49,587 nt of DNA from Thermoanaerobaculia bacterium (GTDB lineage Bacteria; Acidobacteriota; Thermoanaerobaculia; Multivoradales; UBA5704): assembly GCA_035633875.1 (NCBI GenBank), contig DASQEB010000642.1:1-49587 (forward strand), in the 5' to 3' direction. The position numbers and the translations under genes are program-made. Of this stretch, positions 1-47,960 are shown in pieces; positions within the stretch are counted from its first letter, which is position 1; each line of letters starts with the position of its first letter. The notes below the pieces were generated by a model that searched no databases, was not told the DNA's origin, and saw only the letters and a program-made list of their open reading frames with translations.

Positions 1-1271
1 CCGAGCTCCCGGCAGAGCGTCGAGGCCGCGTCCCGGGTCCCCGCCCCCGAGTAGCGGGTGGGCATGTAGAAGGTCTGCACCCTACCTCCCGCCTTGCGCC
101 GGATCTCACCTTCGGAGAGCTTGCCCTCCGGGTCTTCGTCCTGGACCAGGAGCCGCGCCGCCCGCCAGGCGAGGAGGAGGGTGAGCATCGAGTCCCGCCC
201 TCCGGAGAGGGCCACGCCCAGGCCGCCCTTGAAGCCGCCGGACTTGGCGAAGTAGTCCTTCACCCCCAGCGACAGCGCCTCGATCAGCTCGTCCAGCACC
301 TCCTCCCGGGCCGTCCGGGCGGGGGCTCCGGCCGGCGGCAGGAAGAGGTCCTCCCAGGAGGGGACCGGGTAGCGCAGTTCCGAGCGATCCGCCGTGGCGC
401 CCTCGACCCGGATCACGGGGACAGGCACGTCCTCGCGCTGGAAGACCTCGCAGTCCCAGCGCCAGGTCGAGGCCTCGCGCCGGGCGCGCACGGTGCGGTC
501 GAGATCCACGACGCACGCCGTCCACCCTTCGCGGAACCGCGGCGCCTCCAGCATCGGGCGGCCGTTCTGGAAGACGTAGCCGCCGCCGTCGAACACCAGG
601 CCGTCCTGGGCGCCCACCCAGTTGGCGTAGGCCAGGGTGACCTGGTTGTCCGCCGAGCGCGTCGCCAGCATCTCCCGGCGGGTGGAGGCGACGCCGACCC
701 GGTAGGGCGAGGAGGAGACGTTGACCACCACCTCCGCTCCCGAGTAGCACCGCCGGCGCATGGGGCCGTCCGGCGACCAGACGTCCTCGCAGACCTCGAC
801 GGCCAGGAGGCCGAAGTCGAACTGGAACAGGAAGTCCCCGAGGGGGACGCCGTCCGCGTCCAGGGCGAGCCCCGGCGCGCCGCGGGAGAAGACCCGGGCC
901 TCATAGAAGACGTTGTAGGTGGGGAGCTTCTCCTTGGGCACGAAGCCGTGGATCTTCCCGCCGTGGACCACGGCCGCGCAGTTGAAGATCTGTCCGCCCA
1001 CCCCCACGGCGAGGCCGAGAACGAACACCGTCCGCATCCCCGCCGTCGCCGTGGCGAACCGCTCGAGCTCCGTCCGCTGGCTCGCCACGAACGCCCGCCA
1101 CTGGATGAGGTCCTCCGGCGGATACCCCCCGACCCCCTGCTCGGAGAAACACCCGACCGTCACCCCGTCGGCCGCCATGGCCCGGGCCTGGGCCAGCATC
1201 CTGTCCACGTTCGAGCGGACCGCCCCGACCGTGGGGTCCACGTTCCCGATCCCGATCTTGATCAGCCTCAT
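1..1271 (-). CDS. nadE: Glutamine-dependent NAD+ synthetase, N-terminal ~423 codons. The gene continues past the window edge and is absent from the supplied ORF track because no stop lies inside the window.
   Basis: My own minus-strand translation from the ATG (revcomp of 1269-1271) reads MRLIKIGIGNVDPTVGAVRSNVDRMLAQA...GCFSEQGVGGYPPEDL...LLAVEVCEDVWSP, a carbon-nitrogen hydrolase/glutaminase domain. It continues into ...GGLGVALSGGRDSML, the SGGxDS PP-loop motif of NAD synthetase. Confidence 0.85.
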   Translation of the reverse strand, partial: MRLIKIGIGNVDPTVGAVRSNVDRMLAQARAMAADGVTVGCFSEQGVGGYPPEDLIQWRAFVASQRTELERFATATAGMRTVFVLGLAVGVGGQIFNCAAVVHGGKIHGFVPKEKLPTYNVFYEARVFSRGAPGLALDADGVPLGDFLFQFDFGLLAVEVCEDVWSPDGPMRRRCYSGAEVVVNVSSSPYRVGVASTRREMLATRSADNQVTLAYANWVGAQDGLVFDGGGYVFQNGRPMLEAPRFREGWTACVVDLDRTVRARREASTWRWDCEVFQREDVPVPVIRVEGATADRSELRYPVPSWEDLFLPPAGAPARTAREEVLDELIEALSLGVKDYFAKSGGFKGGLGVALSGGRDSMLTLLLAWRAARLLVQDEDPEGKLSEGEIRRKAGGRVQTFYMPTRYSGAGTRDAASTLCREL

Positions 1272-18400: not shown

Positions 18401-19757
18401 GGTCGAGGCAACGCTGATTCTCCAACCGGAAGGGCTCGGAGTCCGGCGCCGGCCCGAGGGGATCTCCCAGCAGCGTGGGGATGACGCGATTCGCCATGGG
18501 ACCGCCGCCGGGACCTCCCTTCACCAGGATCTCCAGCTGGCCATGGAGATCAGGGAAGGCATCCTCCCATCTCGCGGGCTCGCCGTAGATGATGCGCGAC
18601 AGGGCCAACTCCCGCGCTGCCGCGAAAGTCGCGGGTTTGCCCAGGCAGGGATAGTCCTTCTGCTCGACCGGTAGGCAGAGGGGGTACCGGAAGCCGGGGA
18701 CCTCGCCCCAGCCCCAGGTCTCACCCTGGCGGGTCGGCCAGACGCAGAGATCCAGGAGAGCCCCCTTGCCGGGACCGATCTCCACGGCGGTGAGCTCGTT
18801 GCCCTGCAGCGTGACCGCGACCGCCTCTCCGGCGTTCCCCCGGGCCAGGGCACGGCTCGCGACCGAGGTCCCGGCCAGGACGCGGATCTCGATCTCCGCC
18901 CCTTCCTCCGCCGTTCCGCCTGCCGGGCATTCCCAGCAGATCTCGTGGAGCAGGGCGGGATCAACGGTGGAGCTCGCCAGGACGACCCGGGCGAGAGCCT
19001 TGCCGGTCAGCGTCACGGTGCCGGTTTGGAGGGCCAGGGGCTGGAATTGCCGGATGTCGGCTCTCGCGCCGTCCCCCTCGAAGGCCGCGATCGTCAGCTC
19101 TCCCCGATTGGTGAGGAGCAGATCGATGCGGGTGGCCGGGCAGGGGAGATCAATTTCGAGCTGGCGGCTGGTCTGGAGCCCTGGGGGCGTGCCGTTCCAC
19201 TGCTCGATGAGCGTGTGGATCAGCGGCGGGCTCACCGGAGGGATTTCTGTCTGGAAGACGGCCCCCTTTGTCTCCCGGCCCCCCATGGTCGCGCCGAGCG
19301 GCTCGCGACGGAAATCGGCACATGTCCGGACGGTCCGGGGTCCTTCGGAGCGGAGGCCCACTCGGACGTCCACCCGCCGGACCTGAACGCCCGGCGTGAG
19401 ATCGAAACGCAGGGGCGCACCCTGATCAAGATCGACCCCGACCGTGCCAGACGGCGAAAATTCGTCCGTAAAGATCAGGCGCCGGGTGCTGCTCAGGAGG
19501 CCGAGGCGCGTCTCCAGCCCGGTACCGCGGGACGATCCGGGACGCAAGCCGCCGAGAAACGGGCTCAGGCAAAGCGGACGCCGCGGCTGGCTCTCCCGCC
19601 GGAAGAGATAGAACCCGTGCCAGGGGAACCCCCGCTCTGGGGCGAAGATCCACCGGCAGTGGAGGCCGTTGCGCAGGCGCGGGTGATCCTCGTCCGGCGG
19701 CTTGTCGTCCAGGATGCCCAGGACGAGCATCGCCAGATCGTCGGTCTGGAAACTCAT
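15432..19757 (-). CDS. Large multidomain protein (1441 aa), function unknown, with C-terminal FN3-like modules
   Basis: 4326-nt open frame. The N-terminus MSFQTDDLAMLVLGILDD has no signal peptide. Residues ~140-275 form a module homologous to residues ~1130-1265 of the 2625-aa protein. There are internal FN3-like endings (EGWYSYRVLGQDLFGRRSP). Two C-terminal FN3-like modules are visible (ITIRWALDRG...LYCYRVVVIDAEVNASPPS and SVQMAWSSPAEPLEVMVLRR...YRLKVRNAQG). Confidence 0.85.
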   Translation of the reverse strand: MSFQTDDLAMLVLGILDDKPPDEDHPRLRNGLHCRWIFAPERGFPWHGFYLFRRESQPRRPLCLSPFLGGLRPGSSRGTGLETRLGLLSSTRRLIFTDEFSPSGTVGVDLDQGAPLRFDLTPGVQVRRVDVRVGLRSEGPRTVRTCADFRREPLGATMGGRETKGAVFQTEIPPVSPPLIHTLIEQWNGTPPGLQTSRQLEIDLPCPATRIDLLLTNRGELTIAAFEGDGARADIRQFQPLALQTGTVTLTGKALARVVLASSTVDPALLHEICWECPAGGTAEEGAEIEIRVLAGTSVASRALARGNAGEAVAVTLQGNELTAVEIGPGKGALLDLCVWPTRQGETWGWGEVPGFRYPLCLPVEQKDYPCLGKPATFAAARELALSRIIYGEPARWEDAFPDLHGQLEILVKGGPGGGPMANRVIPTLLGDPLGPAPDSEPFRLENQRCLDLLLLASLHPAIAQMLGLYFLDSSAEPGIPYDYLLLADPTGVLGGSASTALDWLAFQPDANAVDAWLVLGKTVAPAPPLPPPGKARVYALPGATTRAQDGKLNDAQINVGLWWEAPPDPSAGATEETNIPVLYYPRRAFLGIKEPGEEPAEVPPDDAYKPLRPDPEDGSDSSAVVLAEPAAPPPPLTPGETRRSPEWPPASVPLRVIDTGLAEGWYSYRVLGQDLFGRRSPLGPPAEWYQWDPPAGQELPWYYRKDAPGHRPIHSFAVALLDKIPPPNPTGLEAAALDPLDRWVLRDSPYEKWRDRNPDVVGLRVRWKWTLSQMNQAPDTREFRIYYIPGRLNELPGEIGLDHLRQPANWAKRLAVVLYADAVEEGIEPSRDPENRPLDAETFKNAGVTVAGGIAHFPPDVDLSGLQPWLDHLYLASDTARPGKTYRIEEVDPKFHTVTLDGEPDLGGNSSPWTIGRPVRIYETFLPAPDLKEGEPFRPTLERPTVFAQIGVSAADDKIHTGDDPKWGAPPLGNRFGNEGRVSPPAAIYRVLQTPPEPPELADYPGGRLWATRADYHSRSFFSFRWKPRPHLKTHVLRALDDSLFQRDWLIRETREALDPEKHQDLFPDGWDLATRQAAVTELNKITSPAGYDSLSENTWKVLALLSGNEGAGDRKALKERDWEIRQTRNSGLVDVKSPDDYRTLSDSALRILAGLPGNEDAFTQITLQPLDDTDPEVQDRRLPDDAADYTPKPTVRAYMDTLPGRATNRYFYRAAFVDGAHNRSGLSPSTPPVYLPKVEPPAPVITGIFGGERTITIRWALDRGPALRELHVYRAHTRRDAEDVRRMALVHLMTSSEAGEPLADHWTDTSVEPLQLYCYRVVVIDAEVNASPPSRVASAQAYDQRPPMPLSWISAEWTSDGKSVQMAWSSPAEPLEVMVLRRMAGGWRPVSTWLPATVMQHMDETAINEIENRYRLKVRNAQGLVNVLYEEIGVASFEL

Positions 19758-21027: not shown

Positions 21028-22560
21028 TTACAACTCTTTGGCGGCTGGCCGCAGCCGAGGGCGGGGTGTGTCTTCCCAGGCAAAAACGCTCGCTCCGCTC
21101 ATCGCACTCGCCAGAGCGTCCCGCTTCGCCGGCCAATCGTTGATCGGCCGGGGCAGGCGTTCGGCAGCGATCACGAGCTCCAGGGCTTCGCGCAATCCTT
21201 CCGAGAGCTCGGCGGCTGGGAAGAGGGCGCGGCGGGCGGCCTCCTCCTCCACCCGCTCGGGCTCGCAGCCCCAGAGCCGGGCGGCCAGGGCACGGAGGTC
21301 GTCCCACGCGACACGGGCGCCGTCCGCCCAGCGGCGGAAACAGCGGTGAACCTCCTCGGCGGCGGCCGCTGCTTCAGCCGCCGCTGGGAAGACGGGATTG
21401 AAGCAGAAGGTTCGGACGAAGCGCCAGGCGGGCAGGGAGTCGAGCTGCTCGGCGAGGAGGCGGAGCAGGGCTTCCTCATCGTCCTTGCCGTCCAACTCAA
21501 GGGTTTGAGCCAAGGTCCGGAGGGCGCCCTTCACCCCGCCCAGGACGCGGCAGGCCTCGGCGGCGAGGGCTTCAAAGCGGGCTTCTTCGCGATACTCGGG
21601 CTCCGGGAGGAAGGCGCGGCCGAAGCGCTCCTCGTGGCAGCGCCGGAGGCTCGCGGCGATCTCCTCCTCGCGGCCGGGGGGCGGGGCGAGCCCCCGATGG
21701 GCAGCGGCCGAGACGAGGAGCGAGCGGATCCGGACCTGCCGCGCGAAGGCGGGGGCCTCCGGGTGGAAGAGCTGGGCCATGCGCCAGGCGCTCAGGAGGC
21801 GGGCGCTTTCCGGGCCGGCCGGGGGGCACCGCAGGGAGACCTCCTTGTAGAAGCTGACGTAGTCGCTCACCACGCGCTCCCGGGGACACGGGGCAGGCCC
21901 CCCGTCCAGGGCCAGCTCCAGGGCCTGGCGCGCGTCCTCCTGCTTGACGCTCTCCGTGGCCAGGATGCGGGCGAGCTCTCCGGTTGCAGGCTTCCCCAAG
22001 TGGAGACGGGCCAACTCGACGACGCGGGCAGGGTGGCGGTCGAGGAAGGAGAGGGCCTTCAAATCCGCGATCAGGCGCCTGGCCGCCTCCGGCTCCGCGG
22101 CTCCCGAAGCCTGGAGGCGCGCAAGTGCGTGCCGCACCTCGACGAGGGCCAGGGTGACGGGCCGGTAGCCGTGCTCGGCTGGCGCATGGAGGAGGGCGAC
22201 TTCGTCGTCGCCGTCGAGGGCGCCCGTCCGGTACCAATCGAAGACGGTCCCCACGCCGATCATGCCGAAGGGCGCGAGCTCCACGGCCCGCAGGGCTCCG
22301 AGGCTCGCCGCTCCGATCACCCGGACGCCGGCGTCCAGAGCGTAGAGAAGCTCTTTGTGGGGCACGGACGGGACGGTGAAGTAGTAGCCGTCCAGAAGGA
22401 TCATGGTCCTTGGATGATGGGCGAGGGCGGCGAGGACGTCCCCGCGCTGGACGGGCGGACGCACATCGCAGGCGGCGAGGAGGGAGCGCCACGCGGGGTC
22501 CGGATCCCGGGGCAGGGTCGGCCCGGCGAAGACCACGACTTGCGAGGGACTTTCACCCAT
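21028..22560 (-). CDS. tfuA: TfuA-like protein with an unusual ~300-aa C-terminal extension
   Basis: From the internal Met the sequence reads MGESPSQVVVFAGPTLPRD...VRPPVQRGDVLAAL...ILLDGYYFTVPSVPHKELLYALDAGVRVIGAASLGALRAVEL..GMIGVGTVFDWY, which is the TfuA signature. The ATG overlaps the YcaO stop (ATGGGTGA). The first 60 codons of the track ORF are an Arg/Ser/Pro-rich artefact. Confidence 0.85.
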   Translation of the reverse strand: MGESPSQVVVFAGPTLPRDPDPAWRSLLAACDVRPPVQRGDVLAALAHHPRTMILLDGYYFTVPSVPHKELLYALDAGVRVIGAASLGALRAVELAPFGMIGVGTVFDWYRTGALDGDDEVALLHAPAEHGYRPVTLALVEVRHALARLQASGAAEPEAARRLIADLKALSFLDRHPARVVELARLHLGKPATGELARILATESVKQEDARQALELALDGGPAPCPRERVVSDYVSFYKEVSLRCPPAGPESARLLSAWRMAQLFHPEAPAFARQVRIRSLLVSAAAHRGLAPPPGREEEIAASLRRCHEERFGRAFLPEPEYREEARFEALAAEACRVLGGVKGALRTLAQTLELDGKDDEEALLRLLAEQLDSLPAWRFVRTFCFNPVFPAAAEAAAAAEEVHRCFRRWADGARVAWDDLRALAARLWGCEPERVEEEAARRALFPAAELSEGLREALELVIAAERLPRPINDWPAKRDALASAMSGASVFAWEDTPRPRLRPAAKEL

Positions 22561-23692
22561 GGGACTTCTCCTTGAAGCCGGGGACGAAGACCCGCGCCAC
22601 CGGCACCCCGACTTCCGGGCGGCTGAGGTCGACCCACCAGGTCTCCAGCCCGTGTCCCGCCAGGATCTCGACGACCCGGTCGAGATCGGAGGCGACGCTC
22701 GCGGTCGAGAGGTCCGGCAGGTCGGCGAAGCAGCGGACACCTTCGGGCTCCTGGAGCTCTTCGAAGAGCCGGTGCGCCGCCTCCCCGGCTCCGAGGAGGG
22801 GCAGGTCGTCCCGGGCTCCCGAGATGTAGGTCAGGCGGGACTGGGCTGCCTCGGTGAGCGCCCGCGACAGGGCCACGGCCGGCTCCGGGTGACAGCCCGA
22901 GCCCCACCAGACGTTGGCGATGTCCGGAGCGGCGATCTCCGCCTGGAGGACGGGGATGCCGGCCTCCCATGTGACGTCATAGAGGGCGAGCTTGAAGCCC
23001 GCGGCATGGATCTTTTCGAGGGACTCGCGGAGCCAGGGAGCCTCCACCGAGTCTTCCCGCAAAGGCACCTTCCGCCAGGGCTCTCGCGCGGCGAGGCGGA
23101 CGCCGTGGCGCTCGACGAGCTCGCACACGCCGTGGAGGACCGCCTCCTCCAGGCAATTGCCCGAGGCGAGGCCGTTCGACGTCCGGCTGAACAGCCGCAG
23201 CGGCAGGGCCGGGGGCTCGGTGAAGTCCAGCTCCAGCATCCAGCGCGGCAGCCAGCCGTCCCGGCCTCCCCGCCAGCAGCGGGCGCGGACCCACGGCATG
23301 GGCAGGGCGAAGGCTTCGGGAGGGAGGAAGACCCAGCGCAGGGAGGTGAGCGGCACGGGGTTGTCGTACCGCATCTCCTGCGGGGAGAGCGTCACCTGGG
23401 GAAGGTGGCCGAGGTCCTCGGCGTGCCAGAGCTCCAGCGCCTCCATGACGGCGCTCGCCCGGGCGGCAGCCGGCGTGGCCCCCTTGCCCTGGGAGACGGA
23501 GAGGTTCCGGCTGGCGGGCCGCACCGCCTGCCAGACCGGGATGCCGATCCGATCGAGCCCGGTCACGTCGGCCACCCGGGTGACCCCGGCCCGGGGCAGG
23601 ACGTCCCGGACGCCGTCCAGCGTCTCCTCGGGACGTCGGATGCGGTGGGTACCGATCCGGAACCTCTTGGGGGAGGTCTCAGAAGGAATCAG
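22553..23692 (-). CDS. ycaO: YcaO-domain protein (TfuA-associated type). Start codon uncertain.
   Basis: ...KRFRIGTHRIRRPEETLDGVRDVLPRAGVTRVADVTGLDRIGIPVWQAVRPASRNLSVSQGKGATPAAARASAVMEALELWHAE...NGLASGNCLEEAVLHGVCELVERH. There is no in-frame ATG, GTG or TTG near the expected N-terminus. The nearest options are CTG (23692) and ATT (23689), which overlap the upstream stop. Confidence 0.8.
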   Translation of the reverse strand: MIPSETSPKRFRIGTHRIRRPEETLDGVRDVLPRAGVTRVADVTGLDRIGIPVWQAVRPASRNLSVSQGKGATPAAARASAVMEALELWHAEDLGHLPQVTLSPQEMRYDNPVPLTSLRWVFLPPEAFALPMPWVRARCWRGGRDGWLPRWMLELDFTEPPALPLRLFSRTSNGLASGNCLEEAVLHGVCELVERHGVRLAAREPWRKVPLREDSVEAPWLRESLEKIHAAGFKLALYDVTWEAGIPVLQAEIAAPDIANVWWGSGCHPEPAVALSRALTEAAQSRLTYISGARDDLPLLGAGEAAHRLFEELQEPEGVRCFADLPDLSTASVASDLDRVVEILAGHGLETWWVDLSRPEVGVPVARVFVPGFKEKSHG

Positions 23693-27045: not shown

Positions 27046-28341
27046 ATGAGCGAGCTCGGCTGGAAGTACCTGACCCCGGACGACAAGGCCGCGATTCTGC
27101 GGGGGATCGAGGACGGTGTCGCCTATGGCGGCCCGTATCACGTGGAGTTCCACCCCGCGGACCGCTGCAACATCGACTGCTTCTTTTGCTCGACCGCATC
27201 CCTCCGTGGCACGGACGAGATCCCCATGCCCCGCTTCGAGGAGCTCCTGGGCGAGCTCAAGGAGGCCGGCACCCGGGCCATCCGCCTCTCCGGCGGCGGC
27301 GAGCCCCTGTTCCACCGGAACATCAAGCCCTTCCTCCAGGCCATCGGGACGAGCGGCATCCCCATCGAGAACCTCACCACGAACGCCGTCCTCCTGCGGC
27401 CGGAGATCGTGGAGCTCCTGCTGCCCGTCTGCGATCAGGTCACCATCAGCCTGAACACCGGGGACGAAGAGACCTATGGCTCGATGATGAAGACCAACCC
27501 TCGCAACTTCCAGCGGGTGATCGACAACGTCAAACACCTGGTCTCCGAGAAGCGCAAGCGCCGGCAGAAGAACCCCCTGGTGAATCTCCAGTTCCTCGTC
27601 TGGAAGGAGAATTACAAGGGAATCCCCGAGATGTACCGCCTTGCCCGGGAGATCGGCGTCGACACGATCCTGTTCAACGGCCTCTCCTTCCTCACCCCCG
27701 ACCAGCAGATGACGCCGGCCGAGACCGAGGAGATGATGGGACTTTACGAGGAGATCGTCCTCGTCGACGGCTACCGCAAGATCTCCTGCATCAACAGCTT
27801 CGAGCAGGACCTCTCGGAACACCTGGAAGCCATGCACAAGCGGGTCGGCGCCCGCTACGGCCGGATGTCCCTTCCCCGGCGGGCCGCGAGGCTCCTCCTG
27901 CGCGACGATTTCACCCTCGCCGAGAAGGTGGATCACATCAAGCGGCGCCTGGAGAGGCGGAAGATGGGCAGGGCCAACGAGGGTCTCGACAGCTACTGCC
28001 TGATCGGCTGGCACTCGATGCTCGTCCGCACCACCGGCATGGTGGCGCCCTGCTGCATCCTGCAGGGCAAGGAACTGGGCAACGTCTACAAGCAATCCGT
28101 CCGGGACGTCTGGCACGGCGAAGCCTTTCAGCAGTTCCGGCGCGAGCTCTCCCGCATCCTGCGCGAGAAGGAGTCCTGGCAGCACGATCCCGCGACCGAC
28201 CGCACCGTCGACGGCATGTGCGGCGCCAAGGGCGCCTGCCCCATCGCCACCTTCTACTACTGGCCGGACAGCCGCTTCCTGCGCTCGTTCAACGAGAGCG
28301 TGCGGCGGCTGGACGAGTTGGAACGCGGCGCGGCGGCGTAA
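27046..28341 (+). CDS. Radical SAM protein with a SPASM-type C-terminal Cys cluster
   Basis: CNIDCFFC (CxxxCxxC) at residues ~41-48, GGGEPL, and C-terminal ...CLIGWHSMLVRTTGMVAPCCILQGKELGNVYKQSVRDVWHGEAFQQFR...MCGAKGACP. It starts 41 nt downstream of the kinase stop. Confidence 0.9.
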   Translation: MSELGWKYLTPDDKAAILRGIEDGVAYGGPYHVEFHPADRCNIDCFFCSTASLRGTDEIPMPRFEELLGELKEAGTRAIRLSGGGEPLFHRNIKPFLQAIGTSGIPIENLTTNAVLLRPEIVELLLPVCDQVTISLNTGDEETYGSMMKTNPRNFQRVIDNVKHLVSEKRKRRQKNPLVNLQFLVWKENYKGIPEMYRLAREIGVDTILFNGLSFLTPDQQMTPAETEEMMGLYEEIVLVDGYRKISCINSFEQDLSEHLEAMHKRVGARYGRMSLPRRAARLLLRDDFTLAEKVDHIKRRLERRKMGRANEGLDSYCLIGWHSMLVRTTGMVAPCCILQGKELGNVYKQSVRDVWHGEAFQQFRRELSRILREKESWQHDPATDRTVDGMCGAKGACPIATFYYWPDSRFLRSFNESVRRLDELERGAAA

Positions 28342-35306: not shown

Positions 35307-36203
35307 ATGCGAGGCGGGACGATGGCGCGGCTCTCCACTGTACACCACGAGGACCTGGCGGCGGATTCCGGCCTCACGCCCGACGCCGGCTCCGCTCTCC
35401 ACCGGCTTCGCGCCTCCCTCCCCGAGTCCTTCCGCTCGCGCATCCGGAGCGCCCGCGAGCTGGTGCGGGAGGTCCGGGAGGTGCAAGAGGAGGAGGAGCC
35501 TCTCGCCACTGCGGTTCCCGCACTGGACCGCCTGCTCGAAGGAGGGCTCCCCCGCGGACAGCTCGTGGAGCTGATCGGCGCCCGGTCGAGCGGGCGCTTC
35601 TCCGCACTGCTCGCGGTGCTCGCCGCGGCGACCGGCGTGGGCGAGGCCGCGGCCCTCGTGGATCTCGGGGACGGGCTCGATCCGGAGACCGCCGCCACGA
35701 TGGGCGTGGATCTGGAGCGCCTGCTCTGGGTGCGGCCCGCCAAGCTCAAGGATGCGCTCGCCGCGACCGAGATGCTCCTCGCCAGCGGCTTCCCCCTGGT
35801 GGTCCTCGATCTCGGGCCGCCGCCCGTGCGCGGCGGGCGCGGAGCGGAAGCGGCTTGGCTGCGGCTGGCCCGCACCGCCCGGGCCCATGGCGCGGCCCTG
35901 CTGGTGGGGAGCCCCTACCGGGTGAGCGGCACCGCCTCCGCCGTGGTGCTGAAGGCGGGCCGCGCCCGGGCCGCCTGGCTCGGTGGAGACGAGGGCTCGC
36001 CCCGGCTCCTCGGCGGCGTCGCCTCCCGGATCACCCTGGAGAAATGCCGGCGCCGGCTTCCGGGGCAGACGGAGGAACTGGCTCTCGCCCCGAAGGAGGC
36101 CCCTCTGCCCGCGGCCCCGCCGCCGGCCCGCCCGCTTCGCCCTGCTCGGAGGGAAGAGGCTCCGGTCGTCCCCCTCGTCCTGCGCCGGGCCGCGGCGGGC
36201 TGA
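35307..36203 (+). CDS. imuA: ImuA-like RecA-fold inducible mutagenesis protein
   Basis: 298 aa, ...ATAVPALDRLLEGGLPRGQLVELIGARSSGRFSALLAVLAAATGVGEAAALVDLGDGLDPETAATMGVDLERLLWVRP..., a degenerate RecA/SulA-like core. It lies 3 nt upstream of imuB. Confidence 0.75.
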   Translation: MRGGTMARLSTVHHEDLAADSGLTPDAGSALHRLRASLPESFRSRIRSARELVREVREVQEEEEPLATAVPALDRLLEGGLPRGQLVELIGARSSGRFSALLAVLAAATGVGEAAALVDLGDGLDPETAATMGVDLERLLWVRPAKLKDALAATEMLLASGFPLVVLDLGPPPVRGGRGAEAAWLRLARTARAHGAALLVGSPYRVSGTASAVVLKAGRARAAWLGGDEGSPRLLGGVASRITLEKCRRRLPGQTEELALAPKEAPLPAAPPPARPLRPARREEAPVVPLVLRRAAAG

Positions 36204-36206
36204 TCC

Positions 36207-37760
36207 ATGGGCTCACCGCGCATCGCCTGCGTCAGCCTGCCGCTGTTCCCCCTGGCCGCCCGGCTGCGCAGCGAGCCGGAGCTCATCCGGGAAGCTCTCG
36301 TCATCGTCGAAGGCAATGGCAATGCCGCCCGGGTGGTCGCCGCCACCCGGCTGGCGCGCAACGCCGGGATCCGGCCGGGGGCCACCCTCCCCCAGGCGCG
36401 GGCCCTCTGCCCCAAGCTCGTCGCCCGTCCCCGGGACGAGGAGTGCGAACGGGCGGCCCAGGAGGCGCTCTTCGAGGTGGCCGAGACGTTCTCCCCCCGG
36501 GTGGAGGACGCCGGCGAAGGGACCGTCTTCCTGGACGTGGACGGCATCGAGCGCCACTTCCGCGGCCCCACCCCCGAGCTGGACCTGGGCCGCGCCCTCC
36601 TCGCCGCCGCCGAGGCCGCGGGCCTGCCGGCCCGGGCCGGGATTGCGTCGAGCAAGCTCGCGGCCCAGGTCGCCGCCGGGCTTCCGGACTCGCCGGTGAT
36701 CGTCCCCGTCGGGGAGGAGGCCGCCTTCCTGGCCCCGCTGCCCCTCGCTCGCCTCACTCCCGAGGTGGACCTCGCCTCCACCTTGGAGCGCTGGGGCGTA
36801 CGCTCCATCGGCGACTTCGCCCGCCTGCCCAAATCCCGGGTGGCGAGCCGGCTGGGAACCACCGGCCGGGAGTTGCATACGACGGCCCGGGGGATCGATC
36901 CCCGCCCTCTGATCCCCCGCGAGCCGCCCCCCGCCTTCCATGAGGGGATGAGCCTCGAATGGCCCCTGGTCTCGCTCGAGCCCTTCCTTTTCGTGGGACG
37001 CGCGGCCCTGGACCGGCTCTGCCAGCGCCTGGAGTCCCGGGGGCTCGCCTGCGTCCGGCTCGGCCTGGAGCTCCGCCTGGAGCCGGACGGCCACCAGACG
37101 CGGTCCATCGACCTGCCGGCTCCCACCCGGGATGTGAAAACCCTCCTCACCCTGGTCCGCCTGGATCTGGAAGCCCGCCCCCCGGGCGCGCCCGTCGCCG
37201 GCTTCACCTTCGTGGCCCATCCCGACCGCCCGCGGCAGGCCCAGCTCTCCCTCTACGGCCCGCCGGCCCTTTCGCCGGACAAGCTGGCCACCACCCTCGC
37301 CCGCCTCTTCGCCCTCCTCGGCCCCGACCGGGTCGGCTCCCCCCGTCCCGTGGACGGCCACAGCCCGGAGCGCTTCGCCCTGGTCGAGTACGCGCCCCCT
37401 CCTCCGCCGGAGGTCCGCCGCGAGCCCCGCACCGGCCGCGGCCTCCTCGCCGTCCGCGTCCTCCGGCCGCCGCTGGAGCTGGAGGTGATCACCGAAGAAG
37501 CCAGAGCGGAGGATCAGGATTCCGCCGCGCTCCTGCCCATCGAGGTCCGCACTTTGGTCAGCGGGACGAGCGATAAACGCCTCCGCATCGAAGGGGCGGT
37601 CAAGGTCGCTTCAGGGCCCTGGGGGCTCGAAGAGGAGTGGTGGACCGAGGACCCGGCAGGTCGCGACTACTGGGACGTGGAGATCGCCGGGGCCGGCATC
37701 TACCGGATCTACCGCGACCGGGCCAGCGGGGGGTGGTACGCGGACGGGATCTACGACTGA
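36207..37760 (+). CDS. imuB: ImuB, Y-family DNA polymerase-like mutagenesis protein
   Basis: [36 protein letters not shown]...[24 protein letters not shown]...[12 protein letters not shown], the classic ImuB N-terminus that lacks the catalytic acidic triad context. 517 aa. Confidence 0.85.
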
Positions 37761-41102: not shown

Positions 41103-42449
41103 ATGGATTCAGGCAGCAGGCTGGACGTCGCGGTGGTGGGCGGGGGGATCTCCGGCTTGACCACGGCGTTCCATCTCGCCCGGGGGGGGATGCGGGTTGC
41201 CGTCCTCGAAGCCTCCGAGCGCGTGGGCGGGGCCATCGAGACCTTCACGGATGGCCCCTGGCGCTTCGAGATGGGACCGAACACGGTCCTCGAGAACAAC
41301 CCCGCGGTGGGCCGGCTGATCGGCGCCTCGGGGCTCGACGGCGAGAAGATCACCGCGGCTCCGAGTGCCAGACGGCGGTATCTCTATAAGAGTGGGGAGT
41401 TGATCGCGCTGCCCCGCGGACCAGGCGGCTTCCTCACCACCCCTCTCGTTCCCGCGAGCGCCAAGCTCCGCCTCCTCCGCGAGCCCTGGATCGGCCGGCC
41501 GGACAACGGTATGGAAGAGAGCATCGCCCAGTTCGTCCGCCGCCGCCTGGGTCAGGCGTTCCTGGATTACGCCGTGGGCCCGTTCGTCTCCGGGGTCTAT
41601 GCGGGCGACCCCGAGCGGCTCTCCGTGGAGTGGGCCGTCCCCAAGATCTACGCCCTGGAGAAAGAGCATGGCAGCCTCTTCCGGGGCGCTCTCGCCCGCC
41701 GCAAGGGGCCGGCCCCGGGTGGCGCCATGATCTCCTTCCGGGAGGGTCTCCAAGAGCTGCCCCGTAGGTTGGCGAAGGAGATCGGGAATGTACGGACCGG
41801 CGTCTCCGCCTCGAAGGTCGTGCGCTCCGGGGACGGCTTCCGCGTCGAGACGAGCGCCGGCCCGATCCAGGCGCAGCAGGTCGTCCTCGCCGTCCCGGCC
41901 GACGTGGCGGCCCGGCTGCTGGACGAGGCCACGGCCGGCGCGAGCCGCCTCTTCGAGGAGATCCCCTACGCGCCCGTGGCCATCGTCTCCCTGGGCTGGC
42001 GCCGGTCGGCCGTGAAGCACCCCCTCGCCGGCTTCGGCTTCCTCTCTCCCCGCAAGGAGGGGCTGCACACCCTGGGCTGCCTCTTCCCCTCGGAGATTTT
42101 CCCCGGCCGCGCCCCGGAAGGCCACGTTGCCCTCGCGGCCTTCGTCGGCGGCCGGACCGATCCAGCAATCGTCGGCTGGACCGACGACCGGCTCCTCTCC
42201 ACGGTTCTCTCCGAGCTCCACGGTCCTCTGGGCCTGTCCGGCGAGCCCACCTTCGGCAAGGTGCGCCGCTGGAGCCGGGCCATCCCCCAGTACGAGGTCG
42301 GCCACGGCCGCTTCGTCGAGAGGGTGAGGGAGATCGAGGGTGCCCTCCCCGGCCTGCGGATCGGCGGGAACTTCGTGGGCGGGGTCTCCGTCCCGGACTG
42401 CATCAGGAACGGGACGGCCTTGGCGGAGGAGGTGCTGGGGGTTTCCTGA
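41103..42449 (+). CDS. hemY: Protoporphyrinogen/coproporphyrinogen III oxidase (HemY/CgoX family, FAD-dependent)
   Basis: MDSGSRLDVAVVGGGISGLTTAFHLARGGMRVAVLEASERVGGAI...GPN...YAGDPERLS...IPQYEVGH...LRIGGNFVGGVSVPDCIRNG. Confidence 0.9.
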   Translation: MDSGSRLDVAVVGGGISGLTTAFHLARGGMRVAVLEASERVGGAIETFTDGPWRFEMGPNTVLENNPAVGRLIGASGLDGEKITAAPSARRRYLYKSGELIALPRGPGGFLTTPLVPASAKLRLLREPWIGRPDNGMEESIAQFVRRRLGQAFLDYAVGPFVSGVYAGDPERLSVEWAVPKIYALEKEHGSLFRGALARRKGPAPGGAMISFREGLQELPRRLAKEIGNVRTGVSASKVVRSGDGFRVETSAGPIQAQQVVLAVPADVAARLLDEATAGASRLFEEIPYAPVAIVSLGWRRSAVKHPLAGFGFLSPRKEGLHTLGCLFPSEIFPGRAPEGHVALAAFVGGRTDPAIVGWTDDRLLSTVLSELHGPLGLSGEPTFGKVRRWSRAIPQYEVGHGRFVERVREIEGALPGLRIGGNFVGGVSVPDCIRNGTALAEEVLGVS

Positions 42450-42488
42450 TGGCACACCCCTGGCACGGGATTTTGCATACACCCCGAT

Positions 42489-43754
42489 GTGACCGACATC
42501 GCGCCCCTTCCGATCCCTCCCGCCCTCCGCCCCGCAGCCAAGCGGACACTTCCGCCCGAGCTTCGCGGACGCAAGGTGATGCGGTTTGCGGAGAGGTTGC
42601 CCGAGGGCGTCCGGGACCCCGGGTTCGAGGATCTGCTCCAGCGCATCGACGGCTCGCCTGTCCTCGGTGGGAATCGCGTCGACATCTTCTTTGACGGCAA
42701 GAGTGCCTTCCCTGCCATGCTGGAGGCGATCCGGACTGCCGAACGGGAGGTCCTCTTCGAGTTTTTCATCGTCCGCAACGACGAGACCGGCCGGCTCTTC
42801 CAGGAGGAGCTGGTAGCGGCGGTGAAGCGGGGCGTCACCGTCCGCGTCCTCGCCGACGGGATGGGGTCGCCGATGACGCCGGGCAGCTTCTGGAAGGAGA
42901 TGAAGGACCAGGGGATCGACGTCTCCCTCTTCCATCCCCTCTTCATCCTGCCGTGGCGCCATCTGCACCGGGACCATCGGAAGATCCTGGTGATCGACCG
43001 GGAGGTGGCGTTCATCGGCGGGATGAACATCGGCGAGGAGTACGGCTCGCCGGACCCGGAGAAGCGCTCCTGGCGGGACACCCACGCGCGGATCACAGGG
43101 CCCGCCGCCTGGGATCTCGCGGTCGTCTTCACCGAGGAGTGGTGCTACTCGGGCGGCTCACCGTGCGAGATCGGGCCGCTCCCGGCGGAGGCGGCCGGAG
43201 CCCCGGGGGCTCGCGTCGTGATCCTGGATTCCCGACCGGGCCGGGGGCACCGGGAGTGGGCTTCGACCTTCGCGGCCCTCGCGGGCGCGGCGCGGCGGAC
43301 GCTCTGGATCACCAACGCCTATTTCGCCCCGTCGCTCCCGCTCGTGCGCCAGCTCCGGCGCGCCGCCCGGCGAGGGGTGGATGTCCGCCTCCTGCTCTCC
43401 GGCAACACGGACCAGCCCGTGGTCCGCTCGGCAGGCCGGAGCTACTACGAGACTCTCCTGGAAAGCGGGGTCCGCATCTTCGAATACCAGCCCACCGTGC
43501 TCCACGCCAAGACCATCGTGGCGGACGGCTTCGTCTCGGTCATCGGCTCGAGCAACCTGGACTCCCGCTCCTTCCGCCACAACTCGGAGTGCAACGCGGT
43601 GATCCTGGATCCGGCCACGGCGGCGGTGATGGAGAAGGGATTTCGCAACGACCTGGCGCAGGCCGAGGAGATCCAGGTCCAGAGTTGGCGACGGCGGCCC
43701 TTCGGCGCCAGGTTGGCAGACGGAATGGCGCGAATGCTCACGCCGGTGCTCTAG
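42489..43754 (+). CDS. Cardiolipin synthase-type phospholipase D family protein (ClsB-like, no TM helices)
   Basis: Two HKD motifs, HRDHRKILVIDREVAFIGGMNIGEEY and LHAKTIVADGFVSVIGSSNLDSRSF. The start could alternatively be the internal Met (MRFAERL) at ~42579. Confidence 0.85.
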   Translation: MTDIAPLPIPPALRPAAKRTLPPELRGRKVMRFAERLPEGVRDPGFEDLLQRIDGSPVLGGNRVDIFFDGKSAFPAMLEAIRTAEREVLFEFFIVRNDETGRLFQEELVAAVKRGVTVRVLADGMGSPMTPGSFWKEMKDQGIDVSLFHPLFILPWRHLHRDHRKILVIDREVAFIGGMNIGEEYGSPDPEKRSWRDTHARITGPAAWDLAVVFTEEWCYSGGSPCEIGPLPAEAAGAPGARVVILDSRPGRGHREWASTFAALAGAARRTLWITNAYFAPSLPLVRQLRRAARRGVDVRLLLSGNTDQPVVRSAGRSYYETLLESGVRIFEYQPTVLHAKTIVADGFVSVIGSSNLDSRSFRHNSECNAVILDPATAAVMEKGFRNDLAQAEEIQVQSWRRRPFGARLADGMARMLTPVL

Positions 43755-43762
43755 AGCCGCCC

Positions 43763-43965
43763 TCAGCTCCGCGCTCGCGAAGCCAGCCCCTCCAGGAGCC
43801 GAATCAGGATTCCAGGATCGACAGGTTTGGTGAGGTGCTCGTCGAAGCCCGCTTCGCGGGCCCGCCGCTTCCTGTCGCAGGGTTCCATACCCAGACGGCC
43901 TGACTGCTCGCCTCCGCCAAGGCCCGGTACCTTGCCTCGCTGTTGGCCAGGCGGGAGCCCTCCAT
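43763..43965 (-). pseudogene. Collapsed remnant of a PAS sensor kinase / receiver gene
   Basis: One frame gives MEGSRLANSEARYRALAEASSQAVWVWNPATG, a typical start of a PAS domain. About 30 codons later the +1 frame gives ...DRKRRAREAGFDEHLTKPVDPGILIRLLEGLASRARS*, a typical receiver-domain C-terminus. No kinase core lies between them. Confidence 0.45.
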
Positions 43966-43982
43966 CGGGTTGTTGCGGAATT

Positions 43983-44324
43983 CTAGGCCAACTCCAGCAG
44001 GCTCTCGGGCGGTCTTCCGAGGACGGCCCGGTCTCCCAGCACGCCGATCGGCCTCTGGAGGAGCGTGGGGTGACGAACCATGGCGGCGACCAGGTCCGCG
44101 TCCGGCTCGTCCCCCGTCAGTCCCAGGCTCTGGAAGGCCGGGTCCTTCGTCCGGAGGACGTCGCGGGCCGGCAGACCGAGGCGGGCGAGGATGTCCCGGA
44201 TCTCGGCTTCGCTGAGCGGCTCCCGAACGTAGTCGCGGTAGTGGTAGGCGATGCCCTTCTCGTCCAGCAAGGCGACCGCCTTGCGGCAGGTGCCTCAGGT
44301 TTTCGTGCAGATCAGCTCGATCAA
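43983..44324 (-). CDS. ArsC/Spx/YffB-family thioredoxin-fold reductase with an in-frame TGA at the redox-Cys position (candidate selenoprotein)
   Basis: The TTG start at 44324 lies 7 nt after AAAGGAG. The translation is (M)IELICTKT-[TGA 44297-44295]-GTCRKAVALLDEKGIAYHYRDY...HPTLLQRPI. This aligns with the YffB-type motif ...YGIKNCDTCKKA..L....I.Y.F.DY, with TGA at the first Cys. The track ORF (43983-44270) begins only after the stop and lacks the motif. Confidence 0.65.
44264..44286 (-). promoter_or_regulatory. SECIS-like mRNA hairpin starting 9 nt downstream of the in-frame UGA
   Basis: The mRNA reads UGA GGCACCUG CCGCAAGGC-GGUC-GCCUUGCUGG. It has 7 contiguous base pairs (CGCAAGGC/GCCUUGC core) plus one more pair after a C.U mismatch. 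The apical loop GGUC contains the G-U dinucleotide seen in enterobacterial SECIS loops. Confidence 0.45.
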
Positions 44325-44395
44325 GGAGCTCTCCTTTCCGTCGCCTCTGCAAGCTTGCCACACCTGGGCAGATACAATGCATCCCCGGACCTGGA

Positions 44396-46288
44396 ATGAT
44401 GGCTTCCTCGATTTTTGCCGATCCCGCACTGACGGTCGCCCTCGCCCTGGCGGCAGGGATGATCGCCCAGGTGATCGCCCGGCATCTGAAGATTCCCGGC
44501 ATCGTGCTGCTCCTGGCGTCCGGTGTCACCTTGGGGCCGGACGTCCTCGGAATCATCCGCCCCGGGACGCTCGGCGGCTCGCTCCATGCCCTCGTGGGCT
44601 TTGCCGTGGCCGTCATCCTCTTCGACGGCGGAATGAACCTGAACCTCGGCCGGCTGCGGCGAGAGGCCCGGAGCATCCAGCAGCTCGTGACGGTCGGCGC
44701 CCTCGTCACGGCCGCGGGCGGGGCCCTGGCGGCGCGGCTGATCATGGATTGGGATTGGGTCCTCGCCATTCTTTTCGGGACCCTCGTCATGGTCACGGGA
44801 CCGACGGTGATCACTCCCCTGCTGCGCCGCATCAAGGTGCAGCCCCGGGTCGCCACCGTCCTCGAAGCGGAGGGCGTGCTGGTGGACGCGATCGGCGCGA
44901 TCTTCGCTGTGGTGGCGCTGGAGGTGGTGATCAGCCCCGCGGGCTCCCTCGGCGGAGGGGCCTGGCACTTCCTTTCGCGCCTCGGGTTCGGCGCCCTGGC
45001 CGGGACCGCCGGAGGTCTCCTCCTGGCCTTCCTGCTTCGCCAGCAGAAGGTCCTGCCGGAGGGGCTGGAGAGCGTGTTCACCCTCGCCTTCGTCGTGGCC
45101 CTCTTCCAGGCCAGCAACGCCGTGATGCCGGAGAGCGGCATCCTCAGCGTGATCATGGCCGGGATCGTGGTCGGCAACGCGCGGGCCCACGTGGTCGCGG
45201 AGCTTCGCGAGTTCAAAGAGCAGCTCACGGTGATGCTGATCGGGCTGCTCTTCGTGCTCCTCGCCGCGGACGTGCGGATCGCCCAGGTCCGGTCGCTCGG
45301 ATGGGCCGGGCTCGGAACGGTGCTCGCGCTGATGCTCGTGGTCCGCCCCCTGAACGTCTGGATCGGCACCCTCGGCTCGGAGCTGACGCTGCGGGAGAAG
45401 ACGTTCCTCTCCTGGCTCGCGCCCCGGGGCATCGTGGCCGCCGCGGTTTCTTCCCTCTTCGCCCAGACGCTGGAGGCCGAGGGGATGCCAGGGGGCGAGG
45501 AGCTGCGGGCCATGGTGTTCCTGGTGATCGCCGTGACGGTTGTGGTCCAGGGCCTCACCGGAGGGAGAGTGGCGGGCTGGCTCGGAGTCCGGCGGCCGTC
45601 GGACACCGGTTTCGTCATCCTCGGCGCCAACGAGCTCGGCCGTGCCCTGGGCAAGGCCCTGCGGGACGGCGGCGAGGAGGTGCTCTTCATCGACTCGAAC
45701 CCGGATGCCTGCCAGGCCGCCGAAGAGGACGGCTTCCGCTGTCTCCACGGCAGCGGTCTCGACGAACAGATCCAGGTCCGGGCGGAGCTCGACATCCGCG
45801 CCGGCTGCCTGGGGGTGACCTCCAACGAAGAGGTGAACCTGCTCTTCGCACGGCGTGTCCGCAAGGACTACAAGGTGCCCCGGGTCTGGGTGGCCCTGCG
45901 GCGGGAACATGTGGGGATCAGCGAGGAAACGGTGGCGCGGCTGGGCGGCCACGTCCTCTTCGGGGAGCCGCAGGACATCGGCGGTTGGATGCAGGACCTC
46001 GGCCGCGGACTGGCCACCGTCGAGCGCTGGAAACGCTCCGGCCGGGAGATCCCTCCGCCAGCCGACAGGGTCCGCAGGGACCTCCACGACGTCCTGCTCC
46101 CCCTGGCGGTCCTCCGCGGCAGGAAGGTCTTCCCCGTGGACGGGACAGTGACTTTCCGGCGGAGCGACCACCTCTACGTGGTCATCCGGGAAGGCGCCCG
46201 GACCGAGGCCCTGGCCTGGCTGCGCAACGAGAGTTGGGAGCCGGTGGACGAGTTGCCCGCCTTGCCACCCGCGCCCGTGGCCGTCTGA
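44396..46288 (+). CDS. CPA1-family Na+(K+)/H+ antiporter (NhaP-type) with C-terminal RCK/TrkA domains
   Basis: 630 aa with about 12 TM helices (..LLLASGVTLGPDVLG...ILFDGGMNL...TGPTVITPLL..EAEGVLVDAIG..). A TrkA-N Rossmann segment (GFVILGANELGRALGKALRDGGEEVLFIDSN) and a TrkA-C-like end follow. Confidence 0.9.
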   Translation: MMASSIFADPALTVALALAAGMIAQVIARHLKIPGIVLLLASGVTLGPDVLGIIRPGTLGGSLHALVGFAVAVILFDGGMNLNLGRLRREARSIQQLVTVGALVTAAGGALAARLIMDWDWVLAILFGTLVMVTGPTVITPLLRRIKVQPRVATVLEAEGVLVDAIGAIFAVVALEVVISPAGSLGGGAWHFLSRLGFGALAGTAGGLLLAFLLRQQKVLPEGLESVFTLAFVVALFQASNAVMPESGILSVIMAGIVVGNARAHVVAELREFKEQLTVMLIGLLFVLLAADVRIAQVRSLGWAGLGTVLALMLVVRPLNVWIGTLGSELTLREKTFLSWLAPRGIVAAAVSSLFAQTLEAEGMPGGEELRAMVFLVIAVTVVVQGLTGGRVAGWLGVRRPSDTGFVILGANELGRALGKALRDGGEEVLFIDSNPDACQAAEEDGFRCLHGSGLDEQIQVRAELDIRAGCLGVTSNEEVNLLFARRVRKDYKVPRVWVALRREHVGISEETVARLGGHVLFGEPQDIGGWMQDLGRGLATVERWKRSGREIPPPADRVRRDLHDVLLPLAVLRGRKVFPVDGTVTFRRSDHLYVVIREGARTEALAWLRNESWEPVDELPALPPAPVAV

Positions 46289-46397
46289 GCGGAGCCGTGC
46301 CCTGCTCTGAGACGGTGCAGTCAGCGGTCGCCGACGAGCGGAAAGTCACCCTCTGACGTCGGCTTTGCTCCTTGTAAAAAGGGGAAAGACAACGAAA

Positions 46398-46417
46398 GCC
46401 GCCGGTGGGTCGGCGGC
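46398..46417 (-). terminator. Rho-independent terminator candidate for the GlsB/YeaQ-like gene
   Basis: GCCGCCG-GTGGGT-CGGCGGC hairpin. On the minus strand it is followed by TTTCGTTGTCTTTCCCCTTTTT. It lies ~95 nt after the stop at 46513. Confidence 0.45.
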
Positions 46418-46512
46418 CGGACAACGCAGAGCTCGAGACCGAAGGGGGAGGGTACCCGGGGTCGCGGGGGCCGGGAAGGCCCAGAACCCCCGCGTTTCGG
46501 GTTCCGGTGAGG

Positions 46513-46782
46513 TCAGCGGACCGTGCCGCGACGGAAGAGGTTGACGATCGCCAGCAGGACGACCGCGCCGAGCAAGGAGACGAGCAGAGACGGCAGACTC
46601 AAGTCGCCGCCGGTGAGGGTGCCCGTTCCGAAGAGCGGAGCCAGCAAAAGGCCCGCGAGCAGAGCGCCGACGATGCCGACGACGATGTTCAAAATCACGC
46701 CCTGCTGGGCGTTGGTCCGCATGATCATGCTGGCGATCCAGCCGATGAGGCCACCGACGATCAACATGATGATGATGTTCAT
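46513..46782 (-). CDS. GlsB/YeaQ/YmgE-family (transglycosylase-associated) small membrane stress protein
   Basis: 89 aa, MNIIIMLIVGGLIGWIASMIM....GVILNIVVGIVGALLAG.L. GGAGGA precedes the ATG. Confidence 0.9.
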   Translation of the reverse strand: MNIIIMLIVGGLIGWIASMIMRTNAQQGVILNIVVGIVGALLAGLLLAPLFGTGTLTGGDLSLPSLLVSLLGAVVLLAIVNLFRRGTVR

Positions 46783-46883
46783 AAGTCCTCCTGTCTCTTA
46801 GGTCGGTTTTGTCTCTCTGTTGACCGATCTTGGTTTGTGTCTCTTGGGTCTTTCTCCCCCGCACGGAGTAAATAGCAACTGTC

Positions 46884-47960
46884 GTGCCACAAGCGCCGGA
46901 TCTTAGAATGGGCCCCGGACAGCGGAGTCCGACGAACGGAGGTCTCTTGCACGATCACCCACCCACTTTTCAGACCTCGCCGGGCACCGGCACGCCGGCC
47001 CCCTTCTTGGAGGAAGAAATCCCTCGAGCGCCGGCAGCTCGCCCGCGGCTGCACCCTCTGCTGCGCGCGGGTCTTTTTCTGATCGTTTACGTTGCCGTCC
47101 ACCTGCTCGTCCTCATGCTCCTGGGAATCCTCGCCCAAGGGTTCAGCGGACGATTTTTTCAGGAGGGGGGATTTGGCAGGTCGAGCGAATTCCTCCTGGT
47201 GACCGTCGCCCTGACGGCACCGCCCATGGTGGCCGTGACCGTTTTCTTCGTCCGCAGTCTCGACCGGCGGCCGATCGTGAGCCTCGGCGTCCGCTGGCCA
47301 GTGGGGGGGCCACCTGTGGCGCTGCGGCAGTTGGTCACCCTGCCCCTGGCCACCCTTGCCCTGCTCGGGGCGTGGCTCGCGGCGGTCCTCGCCCTGCCCC
47401 CCTCCCTCGCCAAGGTGGGCTTCGGCGGCACGAGCGAGGTCTTCGCGTCCGGCCCTTCATGGTGGCCTCTCCCGCCGGTCCTCCTCCTGCCACTCCTGCT
47501 GCTCGGCTTCCTGGTCCAGGGAGGTCTCGAAGAGTGGATCGTCCGCGGCTACGTCTATCGGGCGCTCAAGGACCTCTGGCAGCCCTGGGCGGCGGCGCTC
47601 GCCTCCTCGATCCTCTTTTCCTTCCTTCACGCGACCAATCCCAACATCTCGGCGGTGGCCCTGGTCAACATCGTCCTCGCCGGCATGATCCTGGCCGCCC
47701 TGGTGGAGCGCAGCGGCAGTCTCTGGGGGGCGACCCTCGCCCACGGCGTCTGGAACTTCTCCGTCGCTTGCCTGCTTTCGGCCCCGGTGAGCGGCTTCGA
47801 AGCCTTCCACCTCTTCGACGTGTCCTTCCGAGGGGACGACCTGCTGACCGGCGGCGAGTTTGGACCGGAAGGGAGCCTGGTGCTGACGGCATTCGGTATC
47901 CTCCTCACGGCGGCCCTCTGGGGGCGGAGACAATCCCGGGAGCGGCCGACCGCCCCCTGA
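46884..47960 (+). CDS. CPBP-family intramembrane glutamic endopeptidase (CAAX protease/Abi-like)
   Basis: Motifs GGLEEWIVRGYVYR (EExxxR), FSFLHATN (FxxxH) and LAHGVWNF (HxxxN) in a multi-TM protein. The exact start is uncertain (46884 or 46908). Confidence 0.85.
   Translation: MPQAPDLRMGPGQRSPTNGGLLHDHPPTFQTSPGTGTPAPFLEEEIPRAPAARPRLHPLLRAGLFLIVYVAVHLLVLMLLGILAQGFSGRFFQEGGFGRSSEFLLVTVALTAPPMVAVTVFFVRSLDRRPIVSLGVRWPVGGPPVALRQLVTLPLATLALLGAWLAAVLALPPSLAKVGFGGTSEVFASGPSWWPLPPVLLLPLLLLGFLVQGGLEEWIVRGYVYRALKDLWQPWAAALASSILFSFLHATNPNISAVALVNIVLAGMILAALVERSGSLWGATLAHGVWNFSVACLLSAPVSGFEAFHLFDVSFRGDDLLTGGEFGPEGSLVLTAFGILLTAALWGRRQSRERPTAP

Follow-up and report, generated by a model that had tools for sequence, protein, structure and literature searches.

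A TGA codon lies in frame near the 5' end of a small minus-strand gene in the window, which is the whole stretch of 49,587 nucleotides of Thermoanaerobaculia DNA analyzed here. The question is whether this codon terminates translation or is read as selenocysteine (Sec). Judged from sequence comparison, the gene almost certainly encodes an ArsC-like redox protein whose active-site Cys is replaced by Sec, with the UGA being read via a conserved hairpin. The full reading is a 113-residue glutaredoxin-fold reductase of the ArsC clade, in which codon 10, a UGA, would be decoded as Sec by the SelB/tRNA-Sec pathway via a SECIS element within the coding sequence. It is given a probability of about 0.85.

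The locus reads as a single uninterrupted frame of 113 codons plus a stop (Table 1). From the TTG start codon, the frame runs through LIELICTKT to the TGA and then through GTCRKAVALLDEKG to a TAG at 43985-43983, with the residues G-T-C-R-K-A-V-A-L-L-D-E-K-G directly following the TGA. The 95-aa ORF at 43983..44270, which resulted from automatic ORF calling, is only the tail of this frame. The continuation from the TTG into that ORF, as claimed in the preliminary description of the locus, was confirmed by translation up to the TAG. The Shine-Dalgarno sequence and the start codon named there were also found, the spacing between them being 6 nt and not 7 nt. Many ordinary genes of the window terminate at TGA; the genetic code is therefore standard, and a recoding of the TGA would be local. 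Among the in-frame adjacent ORF pairs of the window that were checked, no second TGA-interrupted gene was found.

Table 1. Position of the gene and of its sequence features in the window.
Feature	Position	Strand	Basis
Complete gene, 113-residue ArsC-type (glutaredoxin-fold) protein with predicted Sec at residue 10	43983..44324	-	Translation, profile matches, homologues, model
Shine-Dalgarno-like AAAGGAG, 6 nt 5' of the start codon	44331..44337	-	Direct sequence reading
TTG start codon	44322..44324	-	Coincides with the start position of the orthologues
Cys6 codon (TGC), conserved in the clade, giving C6-x3-U10-x2-C13	44307..44309	-	Present in 81/81 matched copies; nearly invariant in alignment A3
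In-frame TGA, predicted to be read as Sec (residue 10), position of the catalytic nucleophile	44295..44297	-	Cys12 alignment, conservation, GOS relative
Cys13 codon (TGC), candidate resolving Cys of U-G-T-C	44286..44288	-	C13 invariant in alignment A3
Putative SECIS core, 7-bp stem GCAAGGC/GCCUUGC with apical loop GGUC at 44277-44274	44267..44284	-	Comparative pairing, covariation
Arg58 codon, equivalent to Arg60 of R773 ArsC	44151..44153	-	BLASTP; invariant in alignments A1 and A3
Arg91 codon, equivalent to Arg94 of R773 ArsC	44052..44054	-	BLASTP; invariant in homologue alignments
Arg104 codon, equivalent to Arg107 of R773 ArsC, within the GRPPE motif	44013..44015	-	BLASTP; invariant in homologue alignments

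For the family assignment, profile searches were run with a Cys substituted at the TGA codon of the 113-residue protein. The Pfam family PF03960 (ArsC) was matched with an E-value of 4e-15 and 56.2 bits (gathering threshold 24). The top NCBIfam model was TIGR00014 (arsC, glutaredoxin-type arsenate reductase equivalog) with 92.5 bits, which is below its cutoff of 106.05, and TIGR01617 (Spx/MgsR) reached 56.9 bits, also under its cutoff (75.05). Membership in NF041106 (ArsC_rel_Se_1) was ruled out, the score being 17.7 bits against a cutoff of 85. By sequence, the nearest solved structures were two ArsC-like entries, 3rdw and 3f0i, with an E-value of about 1e-14. Spx and R773 ArsC came next, the PDB entries of Spx being matched at an E-value of 1e-10.

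A natural Cys homologue (P0006), which is 73% identical to the window protein, was used for the structural comparison. Its AlphaFold model (pLDDT 93) was superposed over the full length on 3rdw, 3f0i and 1i9d with TM scores of 0.89-0.91, the value for R773 ArsC (1i9d) being 0.91. The TM score against Spx was 0.77 with 103 aligned columns. The window protein is a member of the ArsC/Spx family with an ArsC fold. The preliminary description had assigned it to this family, which is supported by the Pfam score; as a minor correction to the comparison with YffB made there, the protein is closer to glutaredoxin-type ArsC than to YffB or Spx. In a BLASTP alignment with R773 ArsC, the glutaredoxin-coupled arsenate reductase of an E. 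coli plasmid, the TGA aligns with the catalytic Cys12. The three Arg residues listed in Table 1 align with Arg60, Arg94 and Arg107, so that all four catalytic positions are matched, and all three Arg residues are invariant among the homologues.

These ArsC-like catalytic residues hint at arsenate as a substrate, but the TIGR00014 score is below threshold and an ars context was not observed. No ars-operon genes (arsR/arsB/acr3) were found near the window gene or in five genomic contexts of Cys-form genes. Synteny clustering of ORFs of at least 100 aa revealed no conserved neighbour across 80 loci, and the large synteny clusters turned out to be artefacts, consisting of ORFs antisense to the gene. 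Both the missing context and the score below the cutoff would fit a selenoprotein that is no arsenate reductase and that acts as a general thiol/selenol-disulfide oxidoreductase or as an Spx-like redox sensor via its U-x-x-C motif. The active-site sequence T-U-G-T-C-R-K-A is close to S-C-T-S-C-R-K-A of Spx, with both Cys positions being the same, and the matches to the Spx structures in sequence and fold point in this direction as well. An Spx-like regulator is ranked below an ArsC-type enzyme because R104 of the GRPPE motif, the third catalytic Arg, is of the ArsC type and missing in Spx, and because the match to the ArsC structures covers the full length with a higher TM score than the 103 columns shared with Spx. 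Furthermore, the Spx/MgsR model gave the lower score, the window protein does not have the C-terminal extension of Spx, and Spx regulators are known from the Firmicutes. A function outside arsenate reduction is considered the less likely reading for this protein.

The ArsC-type reading makes the TGA the codon of the catalytic nucleophile, and its conservation was analyzed at the DNA level in 80 species-representative genomes from the Acidobacteriota (including Thermoanaerobaculia), Gemmatimonadota, Myxococcota and Calditrichota. Outside the window copy, the homologous codon was TGA in 75 of 80 copies and TGC in 5. With the window copy included, there are 76 TGA codons in a total of 81 copies; one genome (L020) contributed two copies, and one locus (L048) escaped the search pattern. 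The TGA carriers span at least four phyla and belong to the Thermoanaerobaculia and other Acidobacteriota, the Gemmatimonadota, the Myxococcota (Polyangiaceae, Nannocystaceae) and the Calditrichota. The closest relatives of the window copy are found in MAGs of Thermoanaerobaculia/Acidobacteriota with 77-81% identity.

At the protein level, the best 120 homologous clusters fall into two groups, 36 with full-length proteins of 109-125 aa and 84 with proteins of about 95 aa. The 36 full-length clusters contain the motif T-C-x-T-C-R-K-A with an invariant Cys (C10) at the position of the TGA. Together with the Cys12 alignment, this agrees with the preliminary description, which had placed the TGA on the nucleophilic Cys and suggested a comparison with Cys-containing orthologues. 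The 84 short clusters start at Leu20, just past the TGA position, as expected from a gene caller halting at the TGA.

The 8 codons upstream of the TGA showed a mean entropy of 0.55, 0.39 and 1.09 bits at codon positions 1, 2 and 3, respectively. Codon -9 is a start codon in 66 of the 76 TGA-form copies (ATG in 52, GTG in 11 and TTG in 3 cases). This codon-periodic conservation and the conserved start show that the upstream segment is translated and is not a leader. An untranslated N-terminal segment in the orthologues, which had been considered beforehand as an argument against a selenoprotein, is thus not what these sequences point to.

Downstream of the TGA, the hairpin CCGCAAGGC-GGUC-GCCUUGCUGG was found, the extended stem of which spans 44286-44264. 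The core stem starts 10 nt past the UGA and the extended stem, which includes a bulged U, starts 8 nt past it. The structure and its coordinates correspond to those described before, apart from the distance to the TGA, which had been given as 9 nt. Counted from the U of the UGA, the GGUC loop is located at +21..24. The bSECIS consensus of Zhang and Gladyshev from 2005 reportedly has a spacing of 16-37 nt and a G within the first two loop positions.

Folding of a 66-nt segment (44235-44300), a check proposed in the preliminary description, resulted in a minimum free energy of -24.3 kcal/mol with a z-score of -1.17, which is not significant, and the minimum free energy structure was a competing fold. 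Thermodynamics alone can therefore not support a SECIS element, and the case for it rests on comparative evidence. A search of the whole window against Rfam at gathering thresholds gave no match.

In the 76 TGA forms, window copy included, the 7-bp stem was found to be paired in 99.6% of all cells. Two of the stem pairs show compensatory changes, namely AAG to AGG together with UUG to CUG (L030 and L041) and AAG to AAA together with GCC to GCU (L080). The observed covariation score was reached in none of 500 shuffles (0/500), and in controls with a slid stem the pairing fell to 29-57%. The same hairpin was obtained independently by RNAalifold.

The synonymous sites are frozen in this region as well. 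The entropy of the third codon positions is 0-0.24 bits inside the stem-loop compared to 1.0-1.8 bits on the flanks. Ala16 is encoded by GCG and Val17 by GUC in all TGA forms (76/76 each), and Leu19 is encoded by UUG in 73 of the 76. This GC-poor codon contrasts with the next Leu, for which CUG or CUC is used in the same GC-rich genomes.

For comparison, 10 Cys-form genes were analyzed, of which 5 belong to the 80-genome set and 5 were fetched additionally. The GGUC loop is present in 76/76 TGA forms but only in 5/10 Cys forms (Fisher p = 7e-6). All 7 stem pairs were kept in 3/10 Cys forms (p = 8e-7), and Leu19 is encoded by UUG in 4/10 (p = 3e-5). These results argue that the hairpin is a selected RNA element and no by-product of the peptide CRKAVALL. 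The SECIS claimed in the preliminary description is thereby supported by pairing, covariation, frozen synonymous sites, relaxation in the Cys forms and the agreement with RNAalifold.

The three Cys forms (TGC/TGT) with all seven stem pairs are L011, L082 and L086, the loop being GGUC in L011 and L082 and CGUC in L086. Their hairpins look like fossil SECIS elements, which would fit a recent conversion of Sec to Cys. As a separate observation, the Thermoanaerobaculaceae chromosome L020 (OY970330.1) carries its two paralogous copies at about 2200 and about 3250, i.e., approximately 1 kb apart, and both have the TGA and an intact hairpin.

The co-variation of these SECIS features with TGA, and not with TGC or TGT, also bears on a further explanation, in which the TGA stands in place of a Cys codon owing to an error in sequencing or assembly, or the UGA is translated as Cys or Trp independently of the Sec pathway. 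TGA is one base away from both TGC and TGT, and Cys forms do exist among the relatives. However, the identical TGA is present in an independent assembly (locus L081, Logan SRR6517654), so that the sequence error allowed for in the preliminary description was not seen where it was examined. In addition, TGA was found in 75 copies from unrelated assemblies, and the termination of ordinary window genes at TGA speaks against a general readthrough. Both variants of this explanation are therefore rated as highly improbable. Even slightly less probable is a genuine stop, with the locus being a pseudogene or yielding just the C-terminal 95 aa from a TTG at 44270: gene callers do annotate the 95-aa form and the window reveals no Sec machinery, but the TGA is shared by copies from several phyla, the nine upstream codons are codon-periodic with a conserved start, the hairpin is under selection and the 95-aa product lacks strand 1 and, as already pointed out in the preliminary description, the active site.

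A selenoprotein gene depends on the Sec machinery of its host. Within the 49.6-kb window, ARAGORN detected no tRNA at all and accordingly no tRNA-Sec, and SelA, SelB and SelD were not found among the 20 window proteins scanned with Pfam. Sec users and selenoproteins have been described for the Acidobacteria (PMC1794560, Table 2). Since the TGA and the SECIS are intact and identical to the consensus, the Sec machinery is expected to be encoded in the host genome, which is also consistent with these acidobacterial selenoproteins.

In the proposed mechanism, the SelB/tRNA-Sec pathway of bacteria would insert Sec at the UGA of codon 10. As the signal for this, the SECIS inside the coding sequence would act, with its 7-bp stem and GGUC loop, 10 nt past the UGA. 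Sec10, located at the N-terminus of helix 1, would stand in for the catalytic Cys12 of R773 ArsC, and Arg58, Arg91 and Arg104 would correspond to the oxyanion-binding Arg60, Arg94 and Arg107, with arsenate or a related oxyanion as the presumed substrate. Cys13 takes the position of a Ser in classical ArsC and is the probable resolving residue, turning the intermediate into a selenenylsulfide (U10-C13). The selenenylsulfide could then be reduced by thioredoxin or by glutaredoxin/thiol. No biochemically characterized member of the clade was found in the literature searched.

Compared to R773 ArsC, the window protein has Sec in place of Cys12 and Cys in place of Ser15, which changes the motif C-G-T-S to U-G-T-C. 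It is shorter (113 compared to 141 residues), shares about 29-34% identity and is encoded outside an ars operon. A further difference is Cys6, four residues before the Sec, which is a feature of the window clade and missing in classical ArsC and Spx. The corresponding position is a His in R773 ArsC and a Thr in Spx.

The hairpin resembles the experimentally defined SECIS of E. coli fdhF, which likewise follows closely on the UGA within the coding region and has the identical GGUC loop. The loop is found at +22..25 in fdhF, the sequence of which was confirmed, compared to +21..24 in the window gene. The stem sequences are unlike each other. In the upper stem of the fdhF SECIS, a U is bulged on the 5' side, whereas the core stem of the window hairpin consists of 7 perfect base pairs with an optional bulge on the 3' side.

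Selenoproteins of the ArsC family have been described before. In 2005, Zhang et al. reported 14 Sargasso Sea sequences with a UxxS motif (PMC1088965). A group named 'Arsenate reductase 2 (UxxC)' from the GOS data is listed in Dataset S1 of Zhang and Gladyshev (2008; PMC2398784) and includes JCVI_READ_1093018614276 and JCVI_READ_2161197. The sequence of JCVI_READ_1093018614276 starts with MLTLICKRTUTTCRKAVALLNEK and contains HPTLLQRPIGVLGDQAVLGRP (PMC2398784). Over 112 residues, it shows 63% identity to the window protein, the U occupying the same position. The GOS reads and the window protein have the motifs LIC-xxT-U-xxC-RKAVALL and HPTLLQRPIG..GRP in common, and judged from these similarities the two JCVI reads very probably belong to the family of the window protein. 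The published GOS members are marine reads, whereas the window gene originates from Thermoanaerobaculia-like Acidobacteriota.

The bulk of the GOS 'Arsenate reductase 2' group is a different protein (VDWYYFRGGUTSCTKA...), for which BLASTP gave no similarity to the window protein and whose motif corresponds to NF041106. Although the window clade had been seen before, it was never singled out or characterized, since most of the published group consists of this other protein. NF041106 ('ArsC family (seleno)protein') shares the ArsC superfamily and the UxxC motif with the window protein and represents a different subfamily.

The selenoprotein group 'Arsenate reductase (ArsC) 1' (UxxS; pfam03960/TIGR00014) has the same fold and Sec position as the window protein, with 44% identity to one of its members (PMC1088965; PMC2398784; PMC13188914). 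Both share the C-terminal motif RAVxGRPxE, and TIGR00014 is the top NCBIfam model for both. The window protein differs from this group in its U-G-T-C motif in place of U-x-x-S, in the additional conserved Cys6 and in a TIGR00014 score below threshold. Only two families of ArsC-type selenoproteins, TIGR00014 with UxxS and NF041106 with UxxC, are listed in a 2026 review (PMC13188914), and likewise in a review from 2022. The gene is a mis-annotated further member of a kind of selenoprotein that has been known for about 20 years, and its relatives were listed as predicted selenoproteins in 2008.

It is possible, at somewhat less than even odds, that the window clade constitutes a distinct Sec-dominant subfamily of ArsC-type proteins that has not been separated in the catalogues, with the signature LIC-xxT-U-xxC-RKAVALL ... 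HPTLLQRPIG ... GRPPE. Such a subfamily would be distinguished by Sec as the majority form, by its wide distribution in Acidobacteriota, Gemmatimonadota and Myxococcota of soil and sediment, and by the triad C6/U10/C13. The arrangement of this triad suggests an intramolecular selenenylsulfide cascade or a tri-coordinate binding of As(III) or another metalloid. This proposed chemistry would differ from that of classical ArsC, which relies on a single Cys and on glutathione. Unless the C/U/C site of three residues is mechanistically distinct, the knowledge of recoding or of ArsC chemistry is unchanged.

For genome annotation, the results imply that the 95-aa proteins annotated as "arsenate reductases" (84 of the best 120 clusters) are N-terminally truncated and without an active site. 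An annotation rule searching ArsC frames for a TGA with GCAAGGC-GGUC-GCCUUGC downstream of it would mend hundreds of gene models and would also mark the host genomes as Sec users. The clade would add a redox family in which Sec, and not Cys, is the common state, in phyla that are seldom discussed as selenium users (Thermoanaerobaculia, Gemmatimonadota). The Cys forms with an intact hairpin (L011, L082 and L086) could be useful for studying the exchange of Sec and Cys.

In the window, the gene is surrounded by genes for a PLD-like protein (42489-43754), a Na+/H+ exchanger with a TrkA-N domain (44396-46288) and an amine-oxidase-type flavoprotein. A Cys-form locus (L083, protein P0014) shares Rce1-like, Transgly_assoc, ArsC-like, PAS kinase and amine oxidase genes with the window region 41103-47960. 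Due to this common gene content, the Sec form and the Cys form are considered to occupy related genomic contexts.

Directly 3' of the gene, a remnant of a hybrid PAS sensor kinase/response regulator was identified at 43775-43950 on the minus strand. Residues 24-52 of the 647-aa homologue from L083 match 43950-43864 with 76% identity, and residues 616-647 match 43870-43775 in another frame with 72% identity. Compared to this homologue, about 560 codons are deleted.

Several other regions of the window were noted. The plus strand carries, at 35307-37760, a RecA-like gene that is probably imuA (PF00154) and, behind it in the same frame, an imuB-like gene of the impB/mucB/samB family; this gene pair is reminiscent of the beginning of an ImuA-ImuB-DnaE2 mutagenesis cassette. 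Two very large ORFs of 2626 and 1442 aa with a coding-like GC3 signature are located on the minus strand at 5977-13854 and 15432-19757, respectively. A 570-aa protein with a TfuA-like domain is encoded at 21028-22740 on the minus strand, with a radical SAM/SPASM protein nearby at 27046-28341 on the plus strand; this pair may represent a peptide-modification (RiPP-type) context.
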